NCBI GenBank assembly: GCA_964529715.1
Contig: CAZGXI010000023.1
Span: 130-64,129 of the forward strand
Reading direction: 5' to 3'
DNA length: 64,000 bases
Origin: an uncultured Anaerolineae bacterium
GTDB taxonomy: Bacteria; Chloroflexota; Anaerolineae; Aggregatilineales; Ch27
Both the position numbers and the translations under genes were made by a program. Shown in pieces: positions 24,103-37,031 of the stretch. Each line of letters begins with the position of its first letter. Position 1 is the first letter of the stretch. The notes below the pieces were generated by a model that saw only the letters and a program-made list of their open reading frames with translations, searched no databases and was not told the origin of the DNA.

Positions 24103-24379
24103 GCATTCCTTCTTTCGGCAGATCGCTGTACCCGGATAACAAAATGCGCTTCCCCGGTACTCGAAGAAGCGCGACGCGACAAACCAGCCTATGTCACTCA
24201 TCTTCCAGTTCCCTGACGGACTTGGCACCTTCCCGGCGCTCCGGGGGTTGCCGCGGGTTCACAGGGCCGTTCCCTCCCCCGCTCTGGATGAGTATATCAA
24301 TTGCAGGTTATAGTAGCATAGGTGACTGGAAGCGTCAAGATAGTGGGCGGCAAAACGGCGACGAAAGCAAGGTTGATTC

Positions 24380-28515: not shown

Positions 28516-28545
28516 AAAAACGCCTGATCACAGAACCAGGCGTTT
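28516..28545 (-). terminator. Intrinsic terminator downstream of tRNA-Asn
   Basis: Minus strand AAACGCCTG-GTTCTGTGAT-CAGGCGTTT followed by TT. Confidence 0.75.
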
Positions 28546-28620
28546 GGCTCCGCAGGTAGGACTCGAACCTACAACCCATCGGTTAACAGCCGATTGCTCT
28601 GCCGATTGAGCTACTGCGGA
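28545..28620 (-). tRNA. tRNA-Asn (GTT)
   Basis: Minus strand TCCGCAGTAGCTCAATCGGCAGAGCAATCGGCT-GTT-AACCGATGGGTTGTAGGTTCGAGTCCTACCTGCGGAGCCA, 76 nt with encoded CCA. Confidence 0.98.
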
Positions 28621-31618: not shown

Positions 31619-32428
31619 ATGACCGACATCACCAGCCTCCAGAATGAACGGGTCAAGCTGGCCCACGCGCTGCAAACGCAGCCCAAAGCCCGCCGCCGCG
31701 AAGGAAAGCTCGTCATTGAGGGGGTGCGCCTGCTTAACGACGCGCTTAACTGCGGCCTGATGCCGGAGTACGTCTTTTACCTGGGCAGCGAGGCGACCCT
31801 AGACCGCTCAGCCTACCGGCTGTTTCGCCGTCTGAACGACTTAAACGCGCCGTTTCTGTCTGTGAGCGAAGAGGTGATGGCTCATGTGACCGATTTGGAG
31901 ACGCCGCCGGGCATCCTGGCCGTGTTGCCGCGTCCAACCCTGCCCGCGCCGGAGTCGCCCAGTCTGACGCTGGTGCTGGACGGCATCAACAATCCGGGGA
32001 ACCTGGGGAGTGTGCTGCGCACGGCGGCGGCAGCCGGGGCCGACCTGGTGATTCTCACGCCGGGCACCGTGGATCCCTATAACCCCAAAGTGCTGCGCGG
32101 CGGCATGGGAGCGCACTTCCGCTTGCCGCTGGTGCAGGCGACCTGGCCGGACATCGCCGCACGCTATGGACACCTGAATACCTACCTGGCCGATGCAGGC
32201 GGCGAGACGCCTTACTATGCCGTCGATTGGTTGCGCCCGTCCATGATCATTATCGGCGGCGAGGCGCACGGGGCCGGCGCCAACGCCCGCCAGCTTGCCG
32301 GGCGAACGATCACGATCCCGATGGCCGCCCAGACCGAGTCGCTCAACGCGGCGGTGGCGGCGGGCATTATCCTATACGAAGTGCAGCGCCAGCGTCATTT
32401 GTCTGCCCAGGAAGGGGCACGTCCATGA
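31619..32428 (+). CDS. TrmH/SpoU family RNA 2'-O-methyltransferase
   Basis: ITSLQNERVK, LDGINNPGNLGSVLRTA, IIGGEAHG, ESLNAAVAAGIILYE. Confidence 0.94.
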   Translation: MTDITSLQNERVKLAHALQTQPKARRREGKLVIEGVRLLNDALNCGLMPEYVFYLGSEATLDRSAYRLFRRLNDLNAPFLSVSEEVMAHVTDLETPPGILAVLPRPTLPAPESPSLTLVLDGINNPGNLGSVLRTAAAAGADLVILTPGTVDPYNPKVLRGGMGAHFRLPLVQATWPDIAARYGHLNTYLADAGGETPYYAVDWLRPSMIIIGGEAHGAGANARQLAGRTITIPMAAQTESLNAAVAAGIILYEVQRQRHLSAQEGARP

Positions 32429-33648
32429 AAATCCGCGCCATCACGTTCTTTACCGATCTGCCGCTTGACGAGCCGGAAATTCCCCTGGCGCGCACAGCGA
32501 CATTTCTTCACGCGGCGGCTCCTGCCTTTGAGGAGGCAGGGTTCGCGGTGCAAACGTGCCGTGTCGCCAGCCAGCCGTTCCCGCGTATCCTGGCCCCGAT
32601 TGGTCCGGGACTGGCAGTGGCTTATGCTCAGCGGGTCGAGGAGTTGATCAAAAGCTACGGCATTGACTACCTGTCTTTAGGGCCGGTGGACGTGGACGAC
32701 GATCCCGATTTCGTGGACGCGATCCCGTCGATCATCGGCACGACCGAGACGGTGTTCTGCGCCATTGCCATCGCCGATCCCGTGCGCGGCATCGACCTGC
32801 CGTTGCTGTGGCAGGCAGTCGATGTGATCCAGCAGGTCAGCGGGCTGAGCGCCGATGGCCTGGAAAACCTGTACCTGGCGATGCTGGCGAACTGTCCGCC
32901 GGGTTCGCCGTTCTTTCCGGCGGCTTACCACCGGGCAGGCGATCCGCCGTCGTTTGCCCTGGCGATTCAGGCGGCTGACCTGGCGATTCAGGCTTTTGCA
33001 TGTGCCGAAAGTGCCGCCGACGCGCAGCGCCACCTGACGGAGGCGATCACCCAGGCAGCGACAGAGCTGGGACGGATTGCCGCCGGCTTGGCGGCGGAAT
33101 TTGAGATCGGCTTCGGCGGGCTGGATTTTTCGCTCGCGCCGTTTCCCGACGAGGCCACCAGCCTGGGCGGGGCTATGGAGCGTCTGGGCATTTCGCTGGG
33201 CGGGGGTGGGGCGGCAGCAGCAGCAGCGTTGATCATGAGCGCACTGGACGGAGCAGAGTTCCAGCGGACGGGCTTCAGCGGCCTGATGTTGCCTGTGATG
33301 GAAGACAGCGTCCTGGCGGCGCGGACGGCAGCGGGGGAACTGAGCGTGACGGATCTGCTGCTCTACAGCGCCCTGTGCGGCACGGGCCTGGATACAATCC
33401 CACTGCCAGGCGATACCCCAGCGGCGGCGCTGGTGGGGATGTTGTTGGATGTGGCGGCGCTGGCCCTGCGGCTGAACAAACCACTCACGGCCCGGCTGAT
33501 GCCTCTGCCGGGCAAAAAAGCGGGCGACTCGACCGATCTGGAACATTTCCCTTACTTCGCACCGGGGCGGGTGATGTCGTTCACACGCGGCGTGACGCCC
33601 GGCGGCCTGATGGCTGGCGATGGCGTGTTGCAAATCCGGGCGCGGTAG
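32425..33648 (+). CDS. DUF711 (UPF0210)-family protein
   Basis: MKIRAIT start, LDFSLAP, GFSGLMLPVMED, SALCGTGLDTIPLPGD, KPLTARLMP. Confidence 0.85.
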   Translation: MKIRAITFFTDLPLDEPEIPLARTATFLHAAAPAFEEAGFAVQTCRVASQPFPRILAPIGPGLAVAYAQRVEELIKSYGIDYLSLGPVDVDDDPDFVDAIPSIIGTTETVFCAIAIADPVRGIDLPLLWQAVDVIQQVSGLSADGLENLYLAMLANCPPGSPFFPAAYHRAGDPPSFALAIQAADLAIQAFACAESAADAQRHLTEAITQAATELGRIAAGLAAEFEIGFGGLDFSLAPFPDEATSLGGAMERLGISLGGGGAAAAAALIMSALDGAEFQRTGFSGLMLPVMEDSVLAARTAAGELSVTDLLLYSALCGTGLDTIPLPGDTPAAALVGMLLDVAALALRLNKPLTARLMPLPGKKAGDSTDLEHFPYFAPGRVMSFTRGVTPGGLMAGDGVLQIRAR

Positions 33649-33781
33649 GCAGTAGGGGGATATGTTTTTTCACACCTGCCTGCTTGCGGCGGCGCCCTTT
33701 TGATTGTATCTTGAATTAAGGAACTATTTTGCCGTCGTTTGACTTTTAAGCGAAGTGCGGTGGTGGTCGGACGGGAACGCC

Positions 33782-35416
33782 ATGCAAACGATCGCACAAT
33801 TTGCCAAATCGCTGATCCATGTTGCGTATGACTATGCCGACACGCTCCAGCAGCGCCGCGCGCAGAGCCTGCTTGTCATGACCTTGGGACTGGCGATTGG
33901 CGTCACGGTGGGGACGCTGCTGCTGGCAGGAGGGCGCGTGGTCAGGCCGCTTCTATATCTCGGCAGTATTCCGCTGGGAAGCAGCCGGATCGCCTATATC
34001 CTGATCTGCGTGCTGTGCTACCTGTGTTTTGTTTGGGAAAGGCGTCTGCTCCGACGTGGGCGAATGGTGGCGGCCTGTTATGTCTACGTCGGGTTGCTAT
34101 ATCTCGTCGCTTTGCTGGCTTATGTGCCTACCGAGCTTGGGGGGGCGTTGATTGCGGCATTTACCATGCCGATTGTCGCTGCGGGGGTGCTGCTGGAGCG
34201 CCGTCAGCTCAGGATCGTTGCGGCGCTGGTGACGAGCACGCTAGTCGCCATTCTTGTGCTTGAGCAGCTGGGCGCTCTGGCCTGGGCCAAGTCCGGCTTT
34301 GCCACGCCGGCTTTCATGGCGATTGGCTATAACGTGATCATTCTGGCGGTGAATACCCTGATGCTGGGCGTGTTTGCCGGCGAACAGCGCATTCAGTTGG
34401 ATCAAAAAACAGCCCTGACGCGCGATTTACAGGCGGCAATGCTCGAAGCTACCGCCGCCCAGCGGGCCTACCGGCTGCTCGGCGAAACTGGCCAGGTGAT
34501 GATCCACGCGGCGGACGATGCCGAACTGTTGAACAATGTCTGTCTGAGGGCGGTCGAGATCGGGGGCTATCGTCTGGTTTGGGCCGGGCTGGCGGAGGGC
34601 GGGACGATCCGGGGCGTGGCGCAGGTGGCAGGTTCCACCGACTCGGTGAGTATTGCCTTCGACCCCATGACTTCGCAGCACCGTAGCGCCGTGATCCGCA
34701 CCGTGCAGTCGGGGGCGCCGTTTACCGCTCAACACCTCCTGACCGATGCGCGTTATCAATTGTGGCAGCGCGAGGCGGCGGTGCAGGGCTATGCTGCGTT
34801 CGCCGTCTTGCCGTTGCGCACCGACGATGACGTGCTCGGCGTGCTATGCTTCTATGCCCAGGAGCCGGATGCCTTTCAGTCAGCCGAAATCAACCTGTTG
34901 GAAAAGCTGAGTGGCAGCCTGGCTTTTACCCTGCTCTCATTACGCGAACGGCGCGCGCATGAGCAAGCCGAGGCCGAACGCGCCCGGTTGCAGCAGCAGA
35001 TGATCGAAGCGCAGCAGCAGGCGCTGTTGGAACTATCCACACCGGTGATCCCGGTAGCAGAGGGGGTCATCGTCATGCCGCTGATCGGCAGCATTGATGC
35101 GGCGCGCGCCCGCGACGTGATGCGGGCGCTGTTGAGCAGCATCAGCCACTATCGGGCAAAGGTGGTCATTCTGGATGTGACTGGCGTGCCGGTGATTGAC
35201 AGCGGCGTGGCGGAACATCTGAACAAGTCGATTGAGGCTGTGCGGCTCAAGGGCGCGCAGACCATCATCACCGGCATTTCTGACGCAGTGGCCGAGACGA
35301 TCATCGACCTGGGCATCGACTGGACCGGCGTCATGACGCTGCGCGACCTGCAATCTGGCCTTGCTGCCGCGATGGCGCGGTTGAACGCCTCGCCAGGGCG
35401 CACACTGCGGAATTAG
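33782..35416 (+). CDS. Membrane sensor with GAF and STAS (RsbR-like) domains
   Basis: About 6 TM helices, GAF domain (VLPLRTDDDVLGVLCFYA), coiled coil, ELSTPVIPV..PLIGSID..RA, LDVTGVPVIDS. Confidence 0.88.
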   Translation: MQTIAQFAKSLIHVAYDYADTLQQRRAQSLLVMTLGLAIGVTVGTLLLAGGRVVRPLLYLGSIPLGSSRIAYILICVLCYLCFVWERRLLRRGRMVAACYVYVGLLYLVALLAYVPTELGGALIAAFTMPIVAAGVLLERRQLRIVAALVTSTLVAILVLEQLGALAWAKSGFATPAFMAIGYNVIILAVNTLMLGVFAGEQRIQLDQKTALTRDLQAAMLEATAAQRAYRLLGETGQVMIHAADDAELLNNVCLRAVEIGGYRLVWAGLAEGGTIRGVAQVAGSTDSVSIAFDPMTSQHRSAVIRTVQSGAPFTAQHLLTDARYQLWQREAAVQGYAAFAVLPLRTDDDVLGVLCFYAQEPDAFQSAEINLLEKLSGSLAFTLLSLRERRAHEQAEAERARLQQQMIEAQQQALLELSTPVIPVAEGVIVMPLIGSIDAARARDVMRALLSSISHYRAKVVILDVTGVPVIDSGVAEHLNKSIEAVRLKGAQTIITGISDAVAETIIDLGIDWTGVMTLRDLQSGLAAAMARLNASPGRTLRN

Positions 35417-35474
35417 CCGCTCATGCAGTACCGCGTCTGGACTACGGCAACTTGCAGGCCGGGTGACGATCCCC

Positions 35475-35503
35475 TTTACAGGGCCGCCGGACCCGCTTAT
35501 ACT
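35475..35503 (+). promoter_or_regulatory. Sigma70-type promoter for the hisS leader
   Basis: TTTACA-N17-TATACT. Confidence 0.7.
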
Positions 35504-35530
35504 CTAACATAACGACGGGGGAACAAACTC

Positions 35531-35578
35531 ATGTGTACCAGGATTCACGCTCACCATCACGTCCGACGATTATCCTGA
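35531..35578 (+). CDS. His-rich leader peptide (hisL-like), MCTRIHAHHHVRRLS
   Basis: GGGGG SD, ATG, four His codons within five positions, TGA. Lies between the promoter and the terminator upstream of hisS. Confidence 0.85.
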   Translation: MCTRIHAHHHVRRLS

Positions 35579-35633
35579 CCCACCGTTGCGCCGTGTGAAA
35601 TCAAAGCGCAGACGCGGGTCTGCGCTTTTTATT
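35558..35633 (+). promoter_or_regulatory. Transcription attenuator (1:2, 2:3, 3:4 pairings) upstream of hisS
   Basis: Terminator AAAGCGCAGAC-GCGG-GTCTGCGCTTT-TTATTT (35603-35633). CGTTGCGC (35584-91) can pair with GCGCAGACG (35606-14) or with CGACG/CACG in the leader ORF. Confidence 0.8.
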
Positions 35634-35705
35634 TGCCGGTTTTCAGTGCCCTCATTCCCTTGTCTACCAGGGCGAAGGGGAATTCGCAAAGAAGGAGAAC
35701 CTACT

Positions 35706-37031
<1,326 letters not shown>

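Follow-up and report, generated by a model that had tools for sequence, protein, structure and literature searches.

The window, i.e., the whole stretch of 64,000 nt of DNA analysed here, includes a hisS gene preceded by a short leader. The product of this gene scores 397 bits against TIGR00442, the hisS equivalog model, whose cutoff is 287, and is well above hisZ. Since the next gene is located on the opposite strand, hisS is monocistronic. The amino acid sequence of HisS places the window in the Anaerolineae, and the nearest named genomes are Aggregatilineales/Aggregatilineaceae MAGs (61-67% identity). The features identified from the gene upstream of the leader to the end of hisS are as follows.

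33755-35416, co-directional with hisS: gene for a membrane GAF-STAS protein, 5' of the leader
35475-35480, + strand: -35 hexamer TTTACA (promoter consensus scan)
35498-35503, + strand: -10 hexamer TATACT, after a 17-nt spacer from the -35 hexamer
35517-35522, + strand: leader SD, GGGGGA, 8 nt 5' of the ATG at 35531
35531-35578, + strand: leader ORF of 15 codons, MCTRIHAHHHVRRLS, with its TGA stop at 35576
35546-35560, + strand: His codon cluster CAC GCT CAC CAT CAC (H-A-H-H-H)
35579-35591, + strand: region 2, the proposed 5' strand of the antiterminator, CCCACCGTTGCGC (constrained folds)
35603-35628, + strand: intrinsic terminator hairpin AAAGCGCAGAC-GCGG-GTCTGCGCTTT, with an 11-bp stem (-18.2 kcal/mol)
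35626-35634, + strand: T-tract TTTTTATTT, the U-tract of the terminator
35692-35697, + strand: hisS SD, AAGGAG
35706-37031, + strand: hisS, histidine--tRNA ligase, 441 aa (TIGR00442; ORF map)

Most relatives whose HisS is 72-80% identical have a gene for a DUF711 protein immediately 5' of the leader. At 32227-35416 of the window, the GAF-STAS gene (33755-35416) intervenes between the DUF711 gene and the leader.

A first-pass annotation made from the nucleotide sequence had described a promoter, an SD, a 15-aa ORF and an 11-bp terminator with a T-tract followed by hisS, and all of them were located at the coordinates listed above. The TTTACA-N17-TATACT promoter agrees with the consensus at 10 of 12 positions; the same consensus scan detected 2 promoter-like sites in 3 kb vs 0.6 expected. 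Transcription of the leader would start at about position 35510, ~7 nt past TATACT. The duplex formed by GGGGGA and the anti-SD was calculated at -8.6 kcal/mol. The codons of the leader ORF are ATG TGT ACC AGG ATT CAC GCT CAC CAT CAC GTC CGA CGA TTA TCC TGA, with His specified by CAC at 35546, CAC at 35552, CAT at 35555 and CAC at 35558; the run is short, three consecutive codons plus one. The 5' arm of the terminator occupies 35603-13, the GCGG loop 35614-17 and the 3' arm 35618-28.

Both strands of the window contain 712 ATG-started sORFs of 6-40 aa, and HHH is found only in the leader ORF. Shuffled windows contain ~0.55 HHH sORFs each, so the presence of a lone HHH sORF in the window is unremarkable. 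What chance does not explain is that this sORF is placed between a promoter and a strong terminator directly 5' of hisS. One objection to a regulatory role is that the hairpin merely ends the upstream gene (33755-35416) and that the His uORF is an intergenic ORF that arose by chance. The hairpin is indeed ~190 nt 3' of a co-directional gene, and one HHH sORF per 64 kb is about the chance expectation; against this stands the promoter with 10 of 12 consensus positions that is located between that gene and the uORF. The comparison with other hisS loci, described below, bears on the same objection.

The hisS loci used for comparison were obtained from representative genomes, from metagenome contigs and from contigs with ten HisS homologues at 72-80% identity. 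The assessable set consisted of 34 loci, the window included, in which the identity of HisS was 56% or higher. In 22 of the 34, i.e., the window and 21 further Anaerolineae, a His-cluster uORF precedes an intrinsic terminator, and the leader was found in all ten loci with 72-80% identical HisS. None of the loci compared had a His uORF without a terminator. His clusters were present in 22 of 22 leaders, with at least three His codons in 19 and two in the other three, and the His codons are in frame with the start codon in every leader. An SD-like site of -4.2 kcal/mol or better precedes the uORF in 20 of the 22. The other two (loci L007 and L096) have no SD and start 6-7 nt past the -10 box; they are probably translated from leaderless mRNAs. 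The uORFs of L007 (2868-2903) and L096 (1321-1371) have only two His codons and a longer stop-to-terminator spacing, 33 nt. Leader peptides vary in length among relatives from 9 to 25 aa. His makes up 79 of the 311 residues (25%) over the 22 peptides, which have nothing else in common, as can be seen in the following amino acid sequences.

L081: MRATTHAHHHIWGLS
L163: MLSQMHHHHHKTKRN
L164: MIRLHAHHHHSNVF
L167: MIVQIHAHHHASLR
L168: MGHRHAHHHEKRRS
L169: MTYHTHHHIHLR
L170: MSGGQMHHHHFKMRE
L165 (GTG start): FCAAQHHHASLR
L002: MPARVSLQHHHSGNRP
L006: MFFHHHAGGFY
L085: MIHHHGCTNYY
L087: MIQQRNHHHLKTKD
L088: MMLHHHHPKRAYS
L089: MFHHHATIA
L094: MTIIVRSHTHHIHYHAHWSLAQGTQ

As a control, uORFs encoding HHH were searched for within 300 nt 5' of hisS, allowing three start codons. 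They were found in 7 of 23 close loci vs 1 of 133 outgroup loci, the outgroup being mostly Bacteroidota with HisS <50% identical. The sole outgroup match, from a member of the Bacteroidales (L138), is a 35-aa HHHH sORF with a GTG start located ~185 nt 5' of hisS, and it is probably due to chance. The recurrence of the His uORF in relatives is likewise beyond what chance explains. Conservation of a His-rich uORF upstream of hisS had been named in the first-pass annotation as a point to verify, and it was found to extend to 21 further Anaerolineae loci with a single match in the outgroup.

The leader is missing in 12 of the 34 assessable loci, and the Rfam scan found no T-box in these 12. Most of them are also devoid of the terminator; the exceptions are L083, L095 and L097. 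In L095 the terminator is present with no His uORF, and in L097 the upstream terminator comes after a tRNA-His gene. Locus L083 (~1300-1460) has kept a TTGCAA-N17-TATACT promoter and a terminator 5' of hisS, and it has only CAT CAC, with no in-frame ATG, GTG or TTG. It may be a decayed leader or a leader with a non-canonical start. A terminator is present in L005 as well; the contig ends upstream, so this locus was left out of the assessable set.

The distribution of conserved positions within the leader was then considered. A TTTACA or TTGCAA box is found at equal spacing in L081, L002, L003, L006, L163, L165 and L167-L170, and TATACT is nearly invariant in a 12-sequence alignment (A1). The stretches that separate the conserved blocks vary. 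The closest comparison is that between the window and L081, whose HisS proteins are 97% identical. The two leaders show 0 differences in the 15 positions of the CAC GCT CAC CAT CAC block, 0 in the 24 positions of the post-stop spacer and 1 in the 26 positions of the terminator (A-U to G-U), vs 11 differences in the remaining 27 codon positions of the uORF (41%). This pattern shows where selection acts, the His block, the spacer and the terminator having been spared.

Across relatives, 91.8% of the terminator cells in the alignment are paired, a value that falls to 25-59% if the partner is slid; in 4 pairs both sides are changed. Compensatory substitutions maintain the terminator hairpin. Only ~10-40 nt separate the T-tract from the start of hisS in L162, L002 and L085, too little to accommodate another promoter. 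The gene 5' of the leader differs by locus: it codes for a DUF711 protein, a histidine kinase or, in the window, the GAF-STAS membrane protein, and L167 has a divergently oriented gene there. The short gaps together with the divergent upstream gene in L167 indicate that the hairpin does not terminate an upstream gene and that hisS is transcribed through it. The proposal that the hairpin serves as terminator of the gene at 33755-35416 was rejected on synteny, since relatives retain the uORF and the terminator even where the upstream gene is another one (DUF711, histidine kinase) or is oriented the other way. With the distribution of HHH uORFs (7/23 close loci vs 1/133 in the outgroup) also contradicting a chance ORF, this explanation is considered extremely improbable.

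A second possibility accepts that the uORF and terminator form a unit and separates that unit from hisS: an independent mini-gene would produce a His-rich micropeptide, for example a metal-binding one, and hisS would be expressed separately or by constitutive leak-through. The unit does have its own promoter, SD, ORF and terminator, and a gene caller annotated a 34-aa ORF over the L162 leader. However, a functional micropeptide is difficult to reconcile with peptides whose sequences and lengths (9-25 aa) are unconserved save for the His codons, and with non-His codons that differ by 41% between two genomes with 97% identical HisS. In addition, the unit is always immediately 5' of hisS, whichever the upstream gene, and L162, L002 and L085 have no space for a separate hisS promoter. 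An independent mini-gene is, then, very unlikely, and the evidence favors a leader that acts on hisS.

The window contains another terminator-associated leader, a SAM-I riboswitch (RF00162, 88 bits) at 24195-24294 on the - strand, with a terminator hairpin at 24172-24146 plus ATTTTGTT. It is located 5' of a gene of the PNP_UDP_1 phosphorylase family, which probably functions in MTA/SAH nucleoside salvage. The longest ORF of this gene (start 24228) overlaps the riboswitch, and therefore the true start must be further downstream. The presence of a terminator-type SAM-I riboswitch in the same genome indicates that termination-based attenuation is in use in this organism. A tRNA-Asn(GTT) gene at 28545-28620, also on the - strand, has its own terminator hairpin at 28544-28519. 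Inspection of the strong terminators in the window did not reveal a second amino-acid attenuator, only the SAM riboswitch and ordinary gene-end terminators.

The region 35300-35900 was compared to Rfam 15 at E <= 10, and neither a T-box (RF00230) nor a His_leader (RF00514) was detected. The matches obtained in this permissive scan are noise, such as that of the terminator hairpin to sRNA terminators. At the Rfam gathering threshold, the whole window contains only the SAM riboswitch and one tRNA, and no cis-regulatory Rfam family reached the gathering score in 38 related hisS loci. The distance from the inferred transcription start to the terminator is only ~95 nt, which makes the leader too short for a T-box. 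These results are relevant to a third explanation, in which the hairpin is controlled by an unrecognised riboswitch, a T-box-like element or an RNA-binding protein, and the His codons are incidental or specifier-like. T-boxes are usual for aaRS genes of monoderms and have been reported in Chloroflexi (PMC3766115), and the energetics of the antiterminator do not tell the models apart. Nonetheless, control of this kind does not agree with the absence of a T-box or other family at E <= 10 in the window and at gathering score in the 38 related loci, the ~95 nt available, the His codons that are always in frame with a start codon, the SD found in 20 of 22 leaders or the unconserved sequence between the conserved blocks. 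We regard it as quite unlikely, and favor control of the hairpin by a translating ribosome.

Some of the hisS loci have a tRNA-His(GTG) gene nearby. It is directly 5' of hisS in L097 (1360-1435) and in L016 (2659-2735), neither of which has a His leader, and just 3' of hisS in L091 (2933-3005), also without a His leader. Loci L097 and L091 belong to related Anaerolineae and L016 to a Thermodesulfobacteriota outgroup. A tRNA-His gene beside hisS is a different synthetase-tRNA link.

The first-pass annotation had drawn two alternative structures, one between segments 2 and 3, i.e., the post-stop segment and the terminator 5' arm, and another between segments 1 and 2. The 2:3 pairing does exist in the window, with calculated energies of -10.3 to -12.7 kcal/mol. 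Constrained folds were carried out on 12 leaders; the stretch under the ribosome was kept unpaired, and the transcript was truncated 5' of the terminator 3' arm. For the window leader with the ribosome at the His codons, 35583-91 pairs with 35606-17 (-12.7 kcal/mol). With this ribosome position, pairing between the post-stop segment and the 5' arm plus loop was obtained for 11 of the 12 leaders, at ~-6 to -17 kcal/mol. L094, folded with the ribosome at its last His codon, is the exception. When the ribosome is placed at the stop codon, the antiterminator pairing is weakened or lost and the terminator forms.

The antiterminator can be drawn in 22 of 22 loci with a consistent geometry. The last His codon is located 9-27 nt before the stop codon (median 18), and the distance from the stop codon to the terminator 5' arm is 23-35 nt, being 23-26 nt in 9 of the first 12 loci. 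Counted from the last His codon, the paired spacer segment starts at +25 nt (median), a position outside the stalled ribosome in 22 of 22; counted from the stop codon, it starts at no more than +15 nt, inside the terminating ribosome, in 21 of 22. A CCC(G/A)-N(2-4)-(C/T)TTGC(G/A) block in the spacer is conserved in the 72-100% identity group (alignment A1), even though the stop codon shifts relative to the block, as one would expect of a functional region 2.

Whether the pairing itself is specific was assessed in several ways, with uneven results. In an alignment-free permutation, spacers fit the 5' half of their own terminator better than that of other loci, with p = 0.002 for the loop plus adjacent bases and p = 0.014 for the 5' arm plus loop as the target. 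Compared to dinucleotide-shuffled spacers, the antiterminator duplex has no significant advantage in stability, with a mean z of -0.48 and p < 0.05 in only 2 of 22 loci, and energetic support is not claimed; the terminator arm is GC-rich, so nearly any GC-rich spacer would pair with it. In a structure-blind MAFFT alignment, 68.5% of the antiterminator cells are paired vs 28-54% when slid, and the covariation score is 0.197 vs 0.170 +/- 0.018, a marginal value that is reached by 35 of 500 shuffles in an alignment whose register shifts by 1 nt between sequence classes. The loop and the spacer also switch together by class: loop GCGG(G) goes with CCCG/CCCGC, loop CGTTGG with CCAACG/CCAGCG/CCAAT, and CATCGCC with GGCGATG in L161. 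These switches, recognized post hoc and representing few independent events, are suggestive. The evidence that region 2 pairs with the terminator 5' half is moderate. The antiterminator most likely uses the terminator loop as well (35583-91 with 35606-17), an addition to the 2:3 pairing as first drawn.

The 1:2 part of the earlier drawing did not stand. The pairing of 35558-68 with 35584-95 is weak and amounts to -6.0 kcal/mol as drawn, or -7.6 kcal/mol if the local MFE is taken. The sequence of L081 differs at this position, and in a permutation across loci the segment from the His codons to the stop showed no greater complementarity to its own spacer than to those of other loci (p = 0.99). 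The 1:2 hairpin was consequently rejected as a conserved element. Such a hairpin is typical of the trp and his operon leaders and is not strictly required of attenuators. When the free RNA is folded, one or another segment further 5' usually occupies region 2, and this does not prevent terminator formation; the segment that pairs with region 2 of the window is the SD region (35513-21).

The comparison with relatives decides the case. The leader is, with high probability, a ribosome-mediated attenuator of hisS that operates through the His codons of a leader peptide. The same elements are found in the same order, with His the only conserved residue of the peptides, and hisS has to be reached by read-through. 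The first-pass annotation had proposed that hisS is attenuated by a ribosome sensing charged tRNA-His, and the conserved His uORFs in otherwise unrelated peptides, their near absence from the outgroup (1/133) and the lack of a T-box all support that proposal. In the model that follows, where transcription starts, which nucleotides the ribosome covers, how exactly the antiterminator pairs, and how hisS responds to histidine or His-tRNA charging, including the direction, are predictions from this arrangement. Transcription would begin ~7 nt past TATACT, and a ribosome would load on the leader SD and translate the 15 codons. When His-tRNA(His) is plentiful, the ribosome would reach the TGA at 35576 and cover the next ~12-15 nt, including region 2 (35579-35591). 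With region 2 covered, the terminator at 35603-35628 would fold and RNA polymerase would halt in the T-tract, ~75 nt before hisS. When His-tRNA(His) is scarce, as a consequence of histidine starvation or low HisRS activity, the ribosome would stall at the CAC/CAT cluster (35546-35560). Region 2 would be uncovered during the stall because it begins ~25 nt past the last His codon, and would be free to pair with 35606-35617, in the 5' arm and loop, while the 3' arm has yet to be transcribed. This would block the terminator and let the polymerase read into hisS, the net result being a negative feedback on the level of HisRS.

The MFE folds of the window and L081 also showed that GGUUUUC (35637-43), just 3' of the terminator, pairs with the hisS SD region, GGAGAACC. 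A hairpin at ~35650-85, between GGUUUUC and the hisS SD, is kept in both despite many sequence differences. The pairing between GGUUUUC and the hisS SD is not present in relatives with short spacers. It may provide a further layer of control, at the level of translation, or act as a 5' stabiliser.

The experimentally established aaRS attenuator is that of E. coli pheST, where a leader ORF with cognate codons (the pheM leader peptide) is followed by an intrinsic terminator, and ribosome stalling signals low charged tRNA and leads to read-through. The Anaerolineae leader resembles it in that an aaRS gene or operon is placed under a short leader ORF rich in cognate codons and then an intrinsic terminator. 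They differ in amino acid, phylum and sequence, and pheST has the full four-segment structure whereas no conserved 1:2 hairpin was found in the Anaerolineae leaders compared. The pheST system is cited as precedent in a study that predicted classical attenuators 5' of trpS2 and leuS in Streptomyces (PMC1262725). Those cases share leader-peptide attenuation of aaRS genes outside Proteobacteria; they concern other amino acids and another phylum and are likewise only predicted.

With respect to His, the enterobacterial hisL leader (RF00514) combines an ORF that contains consecutive His codons with a terminator and an antiterminator, and senses His-tRNA(His). However, it controls biosynthetic genes rather than hisS, has 7 consecutive His codons and a multi-hairpin leader, and the window shows no similarity to RF00514 detectable by cmscan at E <= 10. 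In Bacillus, Naville & Gautheret (2010, PMC2965389) predicted a His leader peptide 5' of hisZ and of a paralogue of hisS. As described, this is also a His uORF with a premature terminator before a gene of the hisS family, identified by comparative genomics. It differs in that it belongs to Firmicutes and concerns an extra paralogue that coexists with a T-box-controlled hisS, while the Anaerolineae gene passes the hisS equivalog model. For the his operons of several Firmicutes, attenuators whose leaders carry 3-5 His codons have been predicted (PMC9413887), and these runs are about as short as those of the Anaerolineae leaders. The T-box of Bacillus hisS (RF00230) achieves a comparable outcome, since it senses uncharged tRNA-His and raises hisS transcription by antitermination, but does so through a tRNA-binding RNA of ~200 nt that needs no translation, and none such is present in the window.

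T-boxes have been reported in Chloroflexi (PMC3766115), where surveys of cis-regulatory RNAs list T-boxes and riboswitches, and a survey of leader genes treated this phylum as too sparsely sampled (PMC4833913). No leader-peptide attenuation is described for Chloroflexi in the literature searched, in which subscription journals were thinly covered. The mechanism proposed is already known; what would be new is the phylum, the control of a hisS gene that scores as an equivalog, and a leader with no sequence relation to RF00514. On balance, we lean towards an undescribed leader family, absent from Rfam 15 and widespread in Anaerolineae, that controls the housekeeping hisS and represents the first family of ribosome-dependent attenuators recognised in Chloroflexota. 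If confirmed, the leader would be a candidate for a new Rfam or leader-peptide family, and the succession of a TATACT promoter, a His-cluster uORF, a terminator and hisS would provide a signature for annotation that applies to ~22 loci and probably to many more.

The mechanism is a textbook one, and the gain is in breadth rather than in concept. If confirmed, classical leader-peptide attenuation would extend to Chloroflexota, for which only riboswitches and T-boxes are catalogued in the literature searched, and a further aaRS gene would be under ribosome-sensed rather than T-box control. If the model is true, three elements would be sufficient in this phylum as a minimal design: the His codons, an antiterminator strand placed after the stop codon at a constant spacing of ~25 nt, and the terminator. 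Since attenuation requires a ribosome close behind RNA polymerase, the family would also serve as a sequence-level indicator of transcription-translation coupling, and these two processes would be physically or kinetically coupled in Chloroflexota, here in a poorly studied and mostly uncultured lineage.
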